Assembly: GCA_018650165.1 (NCBI GenBank)
Contig: JABIGM010000006.1
Span: 1-32,678, forward strand
DNA: 32,678 nt
Reading direction: 5' to 3'
From: Methanobacteriota archaeon
GTDB lineage: Archaea; Thermoplasmatota; Poseidoniia; Poseidoniales; Poseidoniaceae
Each line of letters begins with the position of its first letter. The first letter of the stretch is position 1. Made by a program: the position numbers and the translations under genes. Positions 4,030-11,938 of this stretch are shown in pieces. The notes under the pieces were generated by a model. That model did not search any database and was not told where the DNA came from. It saw only the letters and a list, made by a program, of their open reading frames with translations.

Positions 4030-5400
4030 TCACCCAATCAATTCTGCTTCTAATGGTATTTCGTCGACAAGATAGAATGGTTTTTCTTCTCTTGACCACC
4101 AAAATGCAAAGCCAATAACAAACAATGGGATCGCTCCCACTTGCATAGCCCAAACTAATGATGCCATAGATTGAGCGAAGAAGCCGGTTTCGTAATCTCC
4201 TACATCCACACTTTCATTTACCCACACAGCTGAATTGATCAATCGTTTCTGATAGGAAAATCTCCATTCTCCACCTTCATTGTCAAACCCAGATGTAGAT
4301 ACACTCTTCGAACTTGTTGCATTAATCGTGAAATTATTTGATTCCCAAACGACTTCTTCCCCAACAAGATATTGTAAAGTTGCATTTCTTGTGCTTGCTC
4401 GGCCTAGATTAGTAACTTCAAAATTAACTACATCTCCATCCAAGTTGAATGAATCTAGAATCAGACGTGCTCTCCAATACCACACATTGTCAATCAAATA
4501 ACGCATCACATCAAGCTCTTCTGCCATTCGTGAGTCTAGAGATTCAATCGAGCCAAGAGCCCATTGTTCATCATCGGTTTCAAAGGTGAATGTAGGGAAT
4601 CCCATAATCCCGTAGCCATAATCTCTACTAGTCCCGCGGTTAGGATACAGTCCTTGATTTGCATTACGAATTGGAATCTCAGACAGTGAATCATGAACAT
4701 CGTCTCTAATGAAATGAAACAGTTCCCAGTCTACTGGTTGGTCAGGCATGTACCCCCAGGGATACAACATAATCCAAACGCCAGTATGCATTGTGATGTA
4801 GAGATCTGCATCTTTCATGTAGGTATTCATATATTCGGAATTGGCTAATGTTTCAGATTCACTAAAGGGTCCGCCACGACCTGATTGGGTTTCATTTTCA
4901 TCCCATCTGTGTGCATAATTACGATTTAAATCGATTTGATTAACATTCCATCGGGTATCTAAGTCATTTCCATCAGCATTGAGCATGATGAGAACATGAA
5001 TTTCCGTATTAGATAAAACTCGAATTGCTTCTTCTTCACCATCTGCCCACCCTTCGATGTAGTACTGAGCAACAAGGAATGCTAGTTCGGTTCCTAGATG
5101 TTCATTTCCATGGTGGCCACCATCAATGTATACCATATCTTTTGGAGTCCCATCTTCTTTGGTCTCTACAGCCCAATCCGAGAGCCTCACTACCCACAAC
5201 TCCCTCCCCAATTCGGTTTGTCCAGCACTGGTAAGGTCGACAATTTCAGGATAATCACTTGCCCAAGCTTGTACATCAACTGTTAGAGTTGTATGATTGT
5301 GATACCAATGGTCGTTTACAATCGGAGGTATTTGTGCACTCACGGTACCAGAGAATCCTGCGAAAAGCAGAACCCCGAGCATGATTATAGCACGACGCAT
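4030..5400 (-). CDS. Secreted, C-terminally membrane-anchored M14 zinc carboxypeptidase
   Basis: Signal peptide MRRAIIMLGVLLFAGFSGTVSA; HGNE (HxxE), DLNRNY, MHTG, YPW and FTFE motifs; C-terminal TM LVWAMQVGAIPLFVIGFAFWW. Confidence 0.9.
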   Translation of the reverse strand: MRRAIIMLGVLLFAGFSGTVSAQIPPIVNDHWYHNHTTLTVDVQAWASDYPEIVDLTSAGQTELGRELWVVRLSDWAVETKEDGTPKDMVYIDGGHHGNEHLGTELAFLVAQYYIEGWADGEEEAIRVLSNTEIHVLIMLNADGNDLDTRWNVNQIDLNRNYAHRWDENETQSGRGGPFSESETLANSEYMNTYMKDADLYITMHTGVWIMLYPWGYMPDQPVDWELFHFIRDDVHDSLSEIPIRNANQGLYPNRGTSRDYGYGIMGFPTFTFETDDEQWALGSIESLDSRMAEELDVMRYLIDNVWYWRARLILDSFNLDGDVVNFEVTNLGRASTRNATLQYLVGEEVVWESNNFTINATSSKSVSTSGFDNEGGEWRFSYQKRLINSAVWVNESVDVGDYETGFFAQSMASLVWAMQVGAIPLFVIGFAFWWSREEKPFYLVDEIPLEAELIG

Positions 5401-6186: not shown

Positions 6187-7482
6187 CTAATTGAGGATAT
6201 ATGAGAATAAAATCGGGGCCACAATTGTTGCATCTGACTCAATCATATGCATAGGCGTACCTGGTGCCAATTTACCCCATGTGATCTTCTCACTAGGTGG
6301 AGCGCCAGAATAGCCTCCATAAGAGGTCGTGGATTCTGAGATTTGGGCAAACCAACCCCATAGTGGTGCTTTTTCTTGCATGTCTTGTCTTAGCATTGGA
6401 ACTACGCAGATTGGGAAATCTCCAGCGATTCCTCCTCCGATTTGTAAGAAGCCGATTGGGTGTTCAGCATTCATGTACCAATCAGCTAAGTGCATCATGT
6501 AGTCGATACCGCCTTTGACTGCACTTTGTTCAACATCACCTTTGATACAATGTGCTGCGAAGATATTGCCAAGGGTTGAATCTTCCCAACCTGGGACATA
6601 GACCGGTATTCCTGCATCTCTAGCCGCTATCAGCCAGGAATCAGTTCTTGGAATATCCGCCTCAAGGTCGTCGAGGATAGCCATCAAATGTTCATGCGGG
6701 AATGCAGGACCACTTTGCCATTGTTTCAGAATTTTATCCTCGATATGGCGGATTGCTTCTTCTTCGGGAATACAAGTATCTGTGACACGATTGAATCCTT
6801 TCGAATGTAAATCTGCTTCATCCTGTTCTGATATATTTCTCCAGTTTGGAATTCTTTCGTAGTGTGAGTTTGCAACTAAATTGAATACGTCTTCCTCAAG
6901 GTTCGCCCCTGTACAAGTTATTGCGTGAATTTTCCCTGCTCTAATCATCGGTGCAAGAGAACAACCGATTTCTGCAGTACTCATAGCTCCAGCAAGTGTA
7001 ACCATTAGGCGGCCACCGTCTCTAAGGAATTCGTCTAATGAACGTGCGCAATCTCGAAGAGCACCTGCGTTGAAATGATTGAAATGCCGATCAACGAAAC
7101 CTCGTACACCACCATTTACAGGTTCAGTAAGGAATCTTTCTACTCGCTTTCTACGATTGATATTCATGTTAGGATAATTATCTTGCAACTCCTTTTCTAT
7201 CATCTCAATGATTCTTGCAGGGTCGGTTCCACCACAAGTAAACGCATCAATAGCAAGCCAACCACTTTCTGAATAGCAATGTGCGCTGACATGACTTTCA
7301 TCAAGCAATACAACCGCTGCAAACCCTAATGGAGATACGCTTCCGTCAAAGTGTTCAACATGTGAATGAACGCGACGGGCCCCTGATGCATCAACTGCAT
7401 TTTCCATTAAAGATAGCATCCATGGCCCATCTATTCCGACTGCACCTGTGCAATCGAGCATGATGTGTGCGCCATGTGCCAT
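6187..7482 (-). CDS. Fusion of a SpeD/AdoMetDC-fold pyruvoyl decarboxylase (aa 1-118) and a deoxyhypusine-synthase-like domain
   Basis: N-terminal GAHIMLD, LLDESHVSAHCY and IDAFTCG; C-terminal FNHFNAG, LAGAMSTAE, TGANLEED, GGGIAGDF and SGAPPSEKITWGK. One uninterrupted frame. Confidence 0.9.
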   Translation of the reverse strand: MAHGAHIMLDCTGAVGIDGPWMLSLMENAVDASGARRVHSHVEHFDGSVSPLGFAAVVLLDESHVSAHCYSESGWLAIDAFTCGGTDPARIIEMIEKELQDNYPNMNINRRKRVERFLTEPVNGGVRGFVDRHFNHFNAGALRDCARSLDEFLRDGGRLMVTLAGAMSTAEIGCSLAPMIRAGKIHAITCTGANLEEDVFNLVANSHYERIPNWRNISEQDEADLHSKGFNRVTDTCIPEEEAIRHIEDKILKQWQSGPAFPHEHLMAILDDLEADIPRTDSWLIAARDAGIPVYVPGWEDSTLGNIFAAHCIKGDVEQSAVKGGIDYMMHLADWYMNAEHPIGFLQIGGGIAGDFPICVVPMLRQDMQEKAPLWGWFAQISESTTSYGGYSGAPPSEKITWGKLAPGTPMHMIESDATIVAPILFSYILN

Positions 7483-7486
7483 CTAA

Positions 7487-8377
7487 TCAGCCCCTTTTTG
7501 CAATCGCAGCAGCAGTAATTTTGGTCGCAATCATTGCTGCGGTAAACTGAGTGAGAGGTGTATCTTCTTGTTTTACAATCTCATTAACATCAGCACTGAT
7601 TACATTACATGAACTAAAGAGAGTTTCAATGGTTTGAACTACATGCCAGAATGAAAGACCTCCCGGGACAGGTGTTCCTGTAGCGGGAACTAATGAACCA
7701 TCTAGCCCATCGATATCAATTGTGAGATGTACACAACCTTCAATTTTTGAAATTGATTCAAGCCAACCATCCCAAGCCTTTGCACCTGTGCAAGGACTCA
7801 TCACATCTTTAGCAAACCAAGTATTGATGCGCTCGTCACTCTCTATGTAATCGGACTCTTGTTTCGAATACGCTCTTATTCCTACTTGATGGACAGATAA
7901 TACGCCTTCGTCTAGGGACCTGGAAATAGCGCATGCGTGGGAATAAGGCTCGCCGTCAAGTTCATCGCGCAAATCTGCATGTGCATCGATTTGAACGAGA
8001 GTTACTTTTTCAGGACAGCCTCTGAGAATACCGGGTAGTATTCCATGTTCCCCTCCAAGAAATATTGGAAAAGCATCACGTGCATATTGTTGGGAAGCGT
8101 ATCTGCCAATTCCATCGAGTTGTTCTTGGAGCGTATCTCCTTCGCCATTCCATGGTTCGATGGTATGAATTATTGCGCCAGCAGGAAGCTCTTTGCCTAG
8201 CAAATCATCGTACAATTCTACTTGACCTGAAGCTTCAATACAAGCGGCAGGTCCATCGGCAGTACCCTGTCCATATGAGGTTGTAAGTTCATATGGGATG
8301 GATGCTATGATGATATCGGGATTACCCTTCACATTGGGTAATCCGAGGAAATTACCCTCGCAAAACACCTCATCCAT
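7487..8377 (-). CDS. speB: Agmatinase (ureohydrolase family)
   Basis: GGEH, DAHADLRD and DIDGLD metal-binding motifs; PGG motif; 4-nt gap to the next gene. Confidence 0.85.
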   Translation of the reverse strand: MDEVFCEGNFLGLPNVKGNPDIIIASIPYELTTSYGQGTADGPAACIEASGQVELYDDLLGKELPAGAIIHTIEPWNGEGDTLQEQLDGIGRYASQQYARDAFPIFLGGEHGILPGILRGCPEKVTLVQIDAHADLRDELDGEPYSHACAISRSLDEGVLSVHQVGIRAYSKQESDYIESDERINTWFAKDVMSPCTGAKAWDGWLESISKIEGCVHLTIDIDGLDGSLVPATGTPVPGGLSFWHVVQTIETLFSSCNVISADVNEIVKQEDTPLTQFTAAMIATKITAAAIAKRG

Positions 8378-8989: not shown

Positions 8990-11938
8990 ATGAAGGCAAG
9001 GGCCGGTCTGCTAGTAGTGCTTTTTTTGGCTTCAACACTACCTATTGTAAATGCAGATGAAGTTTCACCAGTCACCATTAATGTGGACTGGACTGGAGAC
9101 CATGCGTATATTGTCACTGGAGAAGTAAATCTCGCAGAGGTTAGTGTTAATCATTTACACGATGGAATTGAATTAGATGTTGGATTGATTTATGATACGA
9201 CAGGGGACGACCTTCGAATTGTTTTGAATACTTCACTTTCTCACGGAGATACAATTACAGTAAATGCGGGAAATGTATCACGTATTGTCACAGTTGGTCT
9301 TTGGGGCCAACCTTTAGCAGACCACGAAGTAACTCTTGATTCACATTGGGAAATGGACCAGCAGTGGGAAAATGAAAATGGCTCGCAGAAGTATATCCTA
9401 GAGTTTGATGGTCAAGGATGGCAGCAACGAATTGGAAATACTCTGGAATCTTGGGAAATGGGTGATGGAACTTTACTTATTCTTTCCAACACAGCAGATG
9501 GCGGAATTTCAATGCTGCTTGAACTAGATTCTGTTTGGAAAAATGAAACCACTGTAGACGGAATCATGGTAGCACAAGTCTTCGATGCACGTGGTAGCGG
9601 GACAATAGGCGTAGCAAATGATGGCGACGAAGGCAATGTCGACATCGAAGGAACTGTAAGTGATGCTTGGATTAATCGTTCAATGGTTGACGGCATCGTC
9701 GATGAAAGATTTAGATTAGAAGCGAACGGGACTATTTCAGTTCTTTCAGAAGATGAAGATGAATCGATGAATCTCTCTGGAGAACTAGCAGTATTACTCA
9801 TTGAAACATGGGATTCAAATGGAACTCGTAGATTATCGAATACACAATTTGAAGCTACTGCGGACTTAATTCTTGATACCAATGATAGTAGAATGGATAT
9901 TTCACTAGATACATTCCAATCGGTTGACCGATGGGAAGATGGGGTGAGAGTAGGCCATCTCAACAGAATGATTGGTCACGGAACCTTCGGGTTTTCGGGT
10001 GAAGATGAAAATGCGAGCGTGCAAATTAATGGTACGATTTATGATTTTCATCAAGAGCAGGAAGATGGCCTAGTTACGGTTGATGACTTACATGTTGACG
10101 GAATCATCACCGGTGATGCCCAAGGAACGTTTGGAGTTGTCAGAACTATCGAAAATAATGATCACAGTGAAGCTAATTCCACCGGCGTAATGTATGATGT
10201 AATCATTGTTCACCAGGAAGATTGGTTCAATTTAACTGGAATTACCGCATTGCCAAATTCCGATTTAGGAGTCGGAGCCCACCACAACGAATCATGGTCA
10301 TATGATGCGATTCAATCCGATTGGGACAACAGAACTATCAGAACAGTTTGGAGTCAAACTGGGCCAGACCCAAGCAGCGGAGATGAAGTCCATGCTAATT
10401 CGCCAATTCAAATAAACCCTGAAGCCCCATCTGTTGAAGAAGGAATTGGCGATGCTACAGTTAGCCGGGAATCGGGATTCTCTCCAATCGATGCAGCAAC
10501 AGGTGATACCTTTACTCTCGACCACCAAGGAGGAATGCAACTTACAGTTACAGCAGGTGAATTACAAACCATACCAATGGATGGACATATGGTTGATACG
10601 GTTGCTTGGACAGGTGTATATTCGATTGATGTAACCGGTACAGCAAATGGTAACCTGATTGTTGATGGACCATTGTCCGGTCTAAATGTTGCAATAAATA
10701 GAGCATTCCAAGTTGAATTTGGTGAAGATGAACAACTGGTTAATCTAACGGAGAGCCAATCTGTAAATCGCGTACTATCGCCTTCGATTATTTCAGTTCA
10801 TGATAATCATGAACCTAGCATTGAAGATATCGTATTAGCAAATGGAGTTGTCACTGGTGAGAATGGAGCACCTAGTTATCTTGAAGTCACAGTATCTGAT
10901 ATTGATTTCAATATCGCCAGCGTAGTTGCCGATACAGAGTCAATCGGTGGTACAGATTGGATAAATCTCAACGATAAGGGCCTGGATGGAGATCGAATCA
11001 TCGGCGATGACATATGGACTGTGAATCTATCCGTGCCAGGATTAGAATTTGGTGAACTTCCAATTAATGTCAGAGTTACAGATGTATTTGATGCAAGTGA
11101 TAATGACTCAGCTAACATTACAGTTCTGAATCAACCACCACGACTAACTTCAATTCAAATGGTGCCAACTATCATTTCTCGTGGTGAAATGATGATTGTA
11201 AATGCTGAAGTTATTGATGGACATGGTGTATCATCAGTTTCTGTCGATATGCGAGAATATGGCAGTGGGCTGTTAGAATTAGAGCGAGTAGGCGACATAT
11301 GGGCTGGACAGATAATAATTCCAACCGGAATGAGCCCCGGGGAGCACATCTTGAAGATTCGAATGGTCGATGAATTTGAATCAGCAATTACCGTTGAAAG
11401 AACCCTCGTCTCAGGCCAGCATCACATCCCATCCGAATATGATGAAGATATTTCGATTAATGTGATGAATGAACCCCCTCAAATTGATGTAGGCGAATTG
11501 AGAACAATCGAGATGGGCGGAGAGGATGTTGAATATAATTTGACAATTTCGGTAATGGATTATGATGGACTGAATTGGGTAAAGGTCAAACTGGGAATTC
11601 TTGCCCCCCCGGGCCAATCCAACACCTGGTTTGTCATGACCTCAAATGGCGATGGGACGTACACGAAACAGGTCTTAATCAAGAAGCATATTGCATTAGG
11701 AACACATGAACTTTTAGTGAAGGCTATGGATTCATATGGTTCCCAATCTTCTATGGAATCAGTTCCAATCATGTTGGAAGAGGACGAAAATCCAGCCTCA
11801 ACATCCGGCCCTTCAAGCAGCACAATGACTTATGTTGCTCTTGGAGGACTCGGTATTCTAGTGATTATTGGTGTTGTAATTTACATCATGCGGGGTTCTG
11901 ACGAAGAAGGCGGCCTTGGTGGCTTTGGCGACGTTTGA
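8990..11938 (+). CDS. Large acidic beta-rich cell-surface glycoprotein with choice-of-anchor-X-like motif and C-terminal TM anchor
   Basis: Signal peptide MKARAGLLVVLFLASTLPIVNA; LNDKGLDGDRIIGDDIWT motif; about 19 N-x-S/T sequons counted; TM YVALGGLGILVIIGVVIYIM. Confidence 0.85.
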   Translation: MKARAGLLVVLFLASTLPIVNADEVSPVTINVDWTGDHAYIVTGEVNLAEVSVNHLHDGIELDVGLIYDTTGDDLRIVLNTSLSHGDTITVNAGNVSRIVTVGLWGQPLADHEVTLDSHWEMDQQWENENGSQKYILEFDGQGWQQRIGNTLESWEMGDGTLLILSNTADGGISMLLELDSVWKNETTVDGIMVAQVFDARGSGTIGVANDGDEGNVDIEGTVSDAWINRSMVDGIVDERFRLEANGTISVLSEDEDESMNLSGELAVLLIETWDSNGTRRLSNTQFEATADLILDTNDSRMDISLDTFQSVDRWEDGVRVGHLNRMIGHGTFGFSGEDENASVQINGTIYDFHQEQEDGLVTVDDLHVDGIITGDAQGTFGVVRTIENNDHSEANSTGVMYDVIIVHQEDWFNLTGITALPNSDLGVGAHHNESWSYDAIQSDWDNRTIRTVWSQTGPDPSSGDEVHANSPIQINPEAPSVEEGIGDATVSRESGFSPIDAATGDTFTLDHQGGMQLTVTAGELQTIPMDGHMVDTVAWTGVYSIDVTGTANGNLIVDGPLSGLNVAINRAFQVEFGEDEQLVNLTESQSVNRVLSPSIISVHDNHEPSIEDIVLANGVVTGENGAPSYLEVTVSDIDFNIASVVADTESIGGTDWINLNDKGLDGDRIIGDDIWTVNLSVPGLEFGELPINVRVTDVFDASDNDSANITVLNQPPRLTSIQMVPTIISRGEMMIVNAEVIDGHGVSSVSVDMREYGSGLLELERVGDIWAGQIIIPTGMSPGEHILKIRMVDEFESAITVERTLVSGQHHIPSEYDEDISINVMNEPPQIDVGELRTIEMGGEDVEYNLTISVMDYDGLNWVKVKLGILAPPGQSNTWFVMTSNGDGTYTKQVLIKKHIALGTHELLVKAMDSYGSQSSMESVPIMLEEDENPASTSGPSSSTMTYVALGGLGILVIIGVVIYIMRGSDEEGGLGGFGDV

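Follow-up and report, generated by a model that had tools for sequence, protein, structure and literature searches.

What is made by a locus in which one gene joins two polyamine enzymes in a single open reading frame (ORF), and does it belong to the synthesis of a free polyamine or to the modification of a protein? The question was raised by a two-gene locus of the Poseidoniales, which are uncultured and among the most abundant planktonic archaea. The window, the whole stretch of 32,678 nucleotides analysed (contig JABIGM010000006.1 of assembly GCA_018650165.1), carries on its reverse strand a speB-like ureohydrolase gene followed by a fusion gene, speDA::speY, in which a pyruvoyl decarboxylase domain of the SpeD fold is continued by a domain with the deoxyhypusine synthase (DHS) fold. 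It is likely that these two genes encode a complete, putrescine-free route from arginine, through agmatine and N1,N9-bis(guanidino)homospermidine (G44G, “diagmatine”, caldomycin), to homospermidine, the first two steps being carried by one self-cleaving polypeptide.

The two-gene anatomy and the 4-nt gap described in an earlier note on this DNA were reproduced from the ORF list and the codon read-out: the TGA stop of speB lies at 7487-7489 and the ATG of the fusion at 7480-7482, and both genes form one operon. The speB product, of 296 amino acids (aa), matched the Pfam family Arginase (PF00491; 1e-47, 163 bits). In the 431-aa ORF, AdoMet_dc (aa 21-111; 5e-17, 62.6 bits vs. a gathering cut-off of 25) and DS (aa 137-428; 2e-39, 135.9 bits vs. 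a cut-off of 27) were both above their gathering scores, in agreement with the note, which had seen a SpeD-fold and a DHS-fold domain in one frame. A codon-by-codon check covered E62, S63, H68, C83 and E398, and also K404, which is part of EKITWGK; the predicted cleavage site E62|S63 and the retained lysine of the WGK motif were confirmed, and the predicted alpha chain (63-431) would hold the complete DHS-like domain after cleavage, as the note had anticipated. The AlphaFold (AF2) model of the fusion was confident (mean predicted local distance difference test, pLDDT, of 89.3; 72-81 in the linker).

By the published enzymology of its relatives, the C-terminal domain is likely to be a G44G synthase of the SpeY type, an enzyme that couples agmatine to itself. 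It matched DHS structures in Foldseek (probability 1.0, target TM-score 0.66-0.78), and its K404, E398 and W402 aligned with human K329, E323 and W327, respectively. It was only 21% identical to the canonical DHS of the same genome, which thus contains two DHS-family paralogues, and reached 78-98 bits with the canonical DHS equivalogs (NF002294, TIGR00321, NF002630 and others) vs. cut-offs of 304-434; its best NCBIfam model was “homospermidine biosynthesis protein”. Its identity to the SpeY of Salinimicrobium xinjiangense (Flavobacteriaceae) was 58%, and the gene of that bacterium sits in a cluster with an alanine-racemase-fold (AR-fold) decarboxylase and SpeB. The same arrangement is found in Winogradskyella algicola, a member of the same bacterial family, whose SpeY made G44G in E. 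coli (PMC13625781). Among species-representative genomes, the clade marked by TGANLEED and GGGIAGDF was found to be widespread in bacteria (Flavobacteriaceae, Acidobacteriota, Verrucomicrobiota, Bdellovibrionota and Planctomycetota). The domain also has the partners of a SpeY: it is fused to SpeDA and encoded 4 nt downstream of speB, and a canonical DHS is encoded elsewhere. A tblastn search against plasmids returned just distant haloarchaeal DHS and Nostocales SpeY-type matches (approximately 25% identity), of use solely to supply an anchor above the NF002699 cut-off. The earlier note had taken EKITWGK as the signature of the cyanobacterial SpeY, and this part was not upheld: KEAHSWGK stands at this place in a Trichormus protein above the cut-off of the G44G-synthase model, and EKITWGK is the mark of a separate SpeY clade that includes Flavobacteriaceae proteins.

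In the proposed route, the 431-aa proenzyme would cleave itself at E62|S63 into a 62-aa beta chain and the alpha chain, whose N-terminal pyruvoyl group would decarboxylate L-arginine to agmatine (the SpeDA activity). The DHS-like domain, with bound NAD+ and K404, would oxidise one agmatine, keep its 4-guanidinobutyl group bound to the lysine as an imine and transfer this group to a second agmatine at the primary amine, the coupling product being G44G; the ureohydrolase would then release the two guanidino groups as urea, which would yield sym-homospermidine. With the fusion, both activities would be present in equimolar amounts, and agmatine would be made next to the site that consumes it. For each of the three activities, substrates and products were taken from published enzymology of relatives, the assayed proteins being linked to this locus by synteny, by single-copy orthology and by similarity at the family level. 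G44G is the product of all seven bacterial SpeY enzymes tested (PMC13625781), and CdmS from Thermus couples two agmatines to the same product (Kobayashi 2024, PMC10981699).

The last step would be assigned to the product of speB. No other arginase-fold gene was found in the genome, and speB lies directly upstream of speDA in all the sampled loci of the same family. The motifs for the Mn ligands are present (GGEH at 108, DAHAD at 131 and DIDG at 221), and the score with the NCBIfam agmatinase model TIGR01230 was just below the cut-off (161.1 vs. 174.3). Every SpeB tested hydrolyses G44G and two SpeY-associated ones are inactive on agmatine; that of W. algicola hydrolysed G44G and not agmatine (PMC13625781). 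By the logic of the pathway, and not by close homology, the protein is probably no true agmatinase but a ureohydrolase that acts on G44G (diagmatine).

One of the two readings offered in the earlier note had a different order of steps: agmatine would be converted by an agmatinase to putrescine, and the DHS-like domain would condense putrescine, alone or with agmatine, to homospermidine. The speB product does come near the agmatinase equivalog (161 vs. 174), keeps all the Mn motifs and is only 29% identical to flavobacterial SpeB, so that a specificity for G44G is putative. However, the SpeY-type enzymes tested couple two agmatines to G44G (PMC10981699, PMC13625781); none gave homospermidine without a ureohydrolase and all accumulated G44G, and SpeY would run short of agmatine beside a canonical agmatinase (PMC13625781). 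The fusion of an agmatine producer to the DHS-like domain also fits agmatine, and not putrescine, as the substrate. The passage through putrescine is unlikely, and the route through G44G is preferred.

Several points weigh against this preference. In the C-terminal domain, human K287-H288 is replaced by G354-D355, invariant in the 40-sequence alignment A1, and the chemistry at the base position may, to judge from this replacement, be different. The position reads K-H in the canonical DHS of the genome and K-N in the SpeY of Trichormus, so that the loss of the histidine is common to the curated SpeY type; the stretch GGGIAGDF of the C-terminal domain reads GGGVPKNF in Trichormus. The domain was below both curated SpeY cut-offs (NF001980, 118.2 vs. 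450; NF002699, 80.5 vs. 500) and only 23% identical to the Trichormus protein that passes NF002699. The whole clade, including the flavobacterial SpeYs of clusters with an arginine decarboxylase and SpeB, is also below the cut-offs of these two models, which therefore do not cover this SpeY clade. The distance between the speB product and its flavobacterial counterpart, given above, counts here too. The enzymology of SpeY and SpeB was taken from outside the archaeal clade, and the genome is 80% complete, which makes the absences reported here provisional.

The second possibility raised in the earlier note, an agmatine-based modification of aIF5A as proposed for Haloferax, bears on the canonical DHS. 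The note had advised looking for such a gene, and one was found on another contig of the genome (contig C5), above the DHS equivalog cut-off. Searches of the 80%-complete genome with PF01287 and TIGR00037 gave no gene for aIF5A; such a gene is present in 33 of 37 relatives of the genus, and its absence here was put down to the incompleteness of the assembly. The canonical DHS is the likely hypusination enzyme. Were the fused protein to act on aIF5A instead, its DHS-like domain would move a guanidinobutyl or aminobutyl group to the factor and the ureohydrolase would finish deoxyhypusine. A link of agmatine and agmatinase to aIF5A was proposed in haloarchaea (PMC5178350), and no spermidine route was found in the genus, which leaves room for another hypusination donor. 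Nevertheless, the separate canonical DHS is the obvious enzyme for aIF5A, the clade of the fused domain is widespread in bacteria, which lack aIF5A, and the domain resembles the flavobacterial SpeY at the level given above. Modification of aIF5A by the fusion is very unlikely.

The canonical DHS lacks the two spermidine-binding Asp residues of human DHS, with A and L at human positions 243 and 316, and the same holds for the archaeal structure 8put. Human Asp243/Asp316 had been tried as a marker to tell agmatine-type from spermidine-type proteins and was rejected, since these two canonical proteins are also without both and the marker thus has no discriminating power within prokaryotes; the positions are Phe and Leu in CdmS (Kobayashi 2024, PMC10981699). 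Homospermidine and agmatine were raised as candidates for the aminobutyl donor of the canonical DHS in a genus without a spermidine route.

For the N-terminal domain, the numbering of S63, H68 and C83 is identical to that of Ser63, His68 and Cys83 in the S-adenosylmethionine decarboxylase (AdoMetDC) of T. maritima, which are its self-processing and catalytic residues (PMC10407285). The domain was the sole SpeD-fold gene in the genome, and its score with the AdoMetDC equivalog TIGR03330 (66.4 bits) was below the cut-off of 75.65. A SpeD search of 121 Poseidoniales genomes gave matches in 118, of which 116 had exactly one homologue, and the SpeD homologue adjoined speY in every locus examined. 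The identity to unfused Marine Group II homologues was 55-64%, and the names of close unfused homologues assign the lineage to Candidatus Poseidoniaceae of Marine Group II. Two Marine Group II/III homologues, AIF02979 and DAC51064, decarboxylated arginine only, and not ornithine or lysine, and did not restore spermidine synthesis (PMC10407285). Being single-copy and syntenic, the domain is very likely orthologous to the assayed Marine Group II proteins, and by this analogy it is probably SpeDA, a pyruvoyl arginine decarboxylase, and not an AdoMetDC.

The searches for partners gave a consistent picture. No SpeE was present in the window or in the 80%-complete genome, and none was convincing in 38 genomes of the genus (two weak matches of 19 and 23 bits), which extends the statement of the earlier note that no spermidine synthase is in the window. 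Neither a pyruvoyl arginine decarboxylase of the Methanococcus type (PvlArgDC) nor an AR-fold decarboxylase was found when the genome was checked, as that note had suggested, for another arginine decarboxylase; an ornithine decarboxylase was likewise not found in it. The view of the note that the domain is probably an arginine decarboxylase thus gained from the sub-cut-off AdoMetDC score, from the lack of SpeE and from the arginine-specific Marine Group II homologues. The same results make it highly improbable that the domain is a true AdoMetDC that feeds an unrecognised aminopropyl transferase, the DHS-like domain acting on the resulting polyamine: Pfam and NCBIfam do name the domain AdoMetDC, but S63, H68 and C83, which would agree with this name, are common to all the activities of the fold, and the orthologues failed to restore spermidine synthesis.

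In a close relative (contig in ENA, sample ERZ24794640), speB is followed by a separate 109-aa AdoMet_dc gene and then by the 431-aa fusion; the extra gene is either an additional SpeD copy or an assembly duplication.

The fusion is genuine and conserved. A full-length frame without a stop was present in all 17 genomes searched of the genus of the window, and a stop-free fused frame in 28 of 301 Poseidoniales genomes, including the genera designated g6, g7, g9 and g10. The domain-architecture search proposed in the earlier note was run on 5.8 billion proteins (JGI, ENA, Tara, Logan and NCBI) and gave approximately 100 clusters at the 90% identity level that hold both Pfam domains (431-487 aa, 54-98% identical to the query), 91 of them with representatives of fused length. 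D61-E62-S63-H64, H68 and C83 were conserved in 91/91 of these representatives, E398-K399-I400, W402 and K404 were conserved among them, and K404 was invariant in 92/92 aligned sequences. Within the genus, the non-synonymous divergence (dN) was 0.05-0.19 for both domains and the linker while the synonymous divergence (dS) was saturated, which limits the statement on dN/dS to a small dN with a saturated dS. The fusion is under purifying selection, and an open fused frame in 28 genomes despite saturated synonymous sites is far beyond chance. The assembly artefact absent from relatives, which the earlier note had allowed for, is at odds with the 17 genomes and the 91 fused clusters. A frameshift, misassembly or decaying pseudogene that mimics a fusion can practically be discarded: some public annotations do call just a 326-327-aa “deoxyhypusine synthase” at the locus, but one such record (GCA_002689565.1, NZGQ01000028.1, 2686-3981; 326-aa annotation) contains the intact 431-aa frame, so that the short call is a mis-set start, and the 28 genomes and 91 clusters come from independent assemblies with invariant catalytic residues and a dN much lower than dS.

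HIF46435.1 and RZD40773.1 are also annotated only as the C-terminal 326-327-aa “deoxyhypusine synthase”, and the full-length entries HIL65960.1 and MBT3772016.1 are likewise named deoxyhypusine synthase.

The origin of the fusion can be read from the junction. In relatives with separate genes, the end of SpeDA is “...RFLHxxx*” and SpeY starts with “MS(I/V)R(A/E)FV(D/E)EHYRHFNAG”, the start of SpeY being the next codon or overlapping the stop (ATGA/GTGA); the same stretch in the genus of the window reads RFLTEPVNGGVRGFVDRHFNHFNAG. With the two ends adjacent or overlapping in the unfused relatives, the fusion amounts to the loss of one stop/start junction in a pair of translationally coupled genes. 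The fused ORF has no internal Met or start at the junction, and a separate SpeY therefore cannot be made from it. In a tree of 32 loci, fused forms appeared in two clades (g1+g7+g9 and g10+g6) with different linkers; this tree needs two changes, although a single origin may be possible. Programmed read-through or recoding was considered and found no support: speDA and speY share a frame, interrupted by a stop, in approximately 83 genomes and lie in different frames in approximately 178, an in-frame share near the chance value (one third), and each of the three stop codons occurs.

Features of the locus and of the separate canonical DHS. Positions refer to the window unless another contig is named.
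Feature	Position	Strand	Remarks
speB-like ureohydrolase, 296 aa	7487..8377	-	Pfam Arginase; putative G44G (diagmatine) ureohydrolase
4-nt spacer between speB stop TGA and fusion ATG	7483..7486	-	TTAG on the coding strand
speDA::speY fusion, single 431-aa ORF and stop TAG	6187..7482	-	ORF list, Pfam
SpeD-fold pyruvoyl decarboxylase domain, aa 1-116	7135..7482	-	PF02675; read as SpeDA
E62 and S63 codons, predicted self-cleavage site	7294..7299	-	S63 becomes the predicted pyruvoyl group
Linker, aa 117-130, FLTEPVNGGVRGFV	7093..7134	-	Stands where the ancestral stop and SpeY start were
DHS-fold domain, aa 131-431	6190..7092	-	PF01916; read as SpeY-type G44G synthase
K404 codon	6271..6273	-	Counterpart of the catalytic lysines of human DHS (Lys329) and Thermus CdmS (Lys299)
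DUF6015 protein, 140 aa	8521-8943	+	Pfam 1e-94; divergent from speB
M14 zinc carboxypeptidase, signal peptide and C-terminal membrane anchor	4030-5400	-	Operon flank
Acidic surface protein, 982 aa, no Pfam match	8990-11938	+	Operon flank
Canonical DHS (L001)	contig C5:53165-54073	+	NF002294, 367 bits vs. cut-off 350

The DUF6015 gene remains paired with speB in nearly all the sampled loci that bear speB (65-92% identity) and is more conserved than the polyamine genes; its product could be a regulator or merely a conserved neighbour. The M14 carboxypeptidase and the 982-aa surface protein are conserved neighbours in the relatives too.

The separate genes and the pathway have already been published, and no description of a speDA::speY fusion was found in the literature searched, in line with the earlier note, whose author knew of none characterised; the novelty is the arrangement, and not a new kind of system. 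A close precedent is the Marine Group II/III speB-speDA-speY cluster of fosmid KM3_15_H06 and of the isolate 70165 of Ca. Poseidoniales (Li, Liang, Phillips & Michael, JBC 2023, PMC10407285), from the same order, with the same three genes in the same order and a single SpeD homologue per genome. The assays in that work were of SpeDA, shown there to be an arginine-specific pyruvoyl decarboxylase; the paper presents speDA as clustered with speB and speY and mentions no fusion, whereas here speDA and speY make up a single ORF in which a 14-residue linker joins them and an internal start is lacking. The systems of SpeY/CdmS with a G44G ureohydrolase (DUH) (PMC10981699, PMC13625781) have in common with the locus the DHS fold, the catalytic lysine, the NAD-type glycine motifs and, as partners, an arginine decarboxylase and a hydrolase of the arginase fold; the C-terminal domain differs from them in being archaeal, fused to its agmatine supplier and below the NF002699 and NF001980 cut-offs. 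With canonical DHS (PDB 8put, 1dhs and 6xxj) it shares the fold, the W-G-K lysine and the glutamate E398, but the identity is only 16-22%, K287-H288 is lost and the genome has a true DHS at another locus. The SpeD-SpeDC double-pyruvoyl fusions of Desulfotignum and Omnitrophica (Li et al. 2023) also join a self-cleaving SpeD-fold protein to the next polyamine enzyme, and one processed chain bears the second catalytic domain, as would be the case here. The partner in those fusions is a second SpeD-fold decarboxylase, whereas in the present one it is an NAD-dependent DHS-fold transferase, with one pyruvoyl group and two unrelated chemistries.

Other joinings of these genes were observed. In one genome of genus g20, Arginase and AdoMet_dc share a 537-aa ORF (locus L038, G015:C1, 995-2608, + strand) followed by an overlapping speY, while in another g20 genome (G141) they are in separate frames; this speB::speDA ORF represents a further type of fusion, or else a frameshift error. 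A 756-aa protein on a 2.5-kb contig of a JGI metagenome (P0286) combines AdoMet_dc, a methyltransferase of the NNMT/PNMT/TEMT type and DS, the latter 52% identical to the C-terminal domain described here, and hints at a methylated product. A 453-aa protein from a metagenome-assembled genome of Pseudomonadota (P0290, MEC8460675.1) has AdoMet_dc and DS (48% identity in the C-terminal domain); having the same architecture, it places the fusion also outside the archaea, by independent fusion or transfer. The repeated joinings (speDA::speY once or twice in archaea and again in Pseudomonadota, possibly speB::speDA, and the SpeD-methyltransferase-SpeY triple) suggest that selection keeps tying the three genes together.

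A more far-reaching proposal takes three things together: that agmatine is channelled from the pyruvoyl site to the coupling site without pooling or diversion, in an assembly that would consist of a DHS-type tetramer core with SpeDA dimers at the N-termini, that homospermidine is the only triamine of these archaea, which would be free of spermidine, and that it is also the aminobutyl donor with which the canonical DHS modifies aIF5A. As a whole this is possible but doubtful.

Fused proteins of this type will be mis-assigned in pathway reconstructions, as databases label them “deoxyhypusine synthase”, sometimes on the C-terminal domain only. The welding of this domain to an arginine decarboxylase is a “Rosetta stone” type of evidence for agmatine as its substrate. 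Li et al. 2026 asked whether archaea encode both agmatine- and spermidine-dependent proteins of the DHS family (PMC13625781); this genome carries both DHS-family paralogues and makes that question testable, and, as a single natural polypeptide, the fusion lends itself to tests of the archaeal pathway in E. coli. If the proposed route is true, the triamine of the Poseidoniales would be homospermidine, and its synthesis from arginine would use no cofactors but NAD+ and a pyruvoyl group derived from the protein, with neither pyridoxal phosphate nor S-adenosylmethionine.

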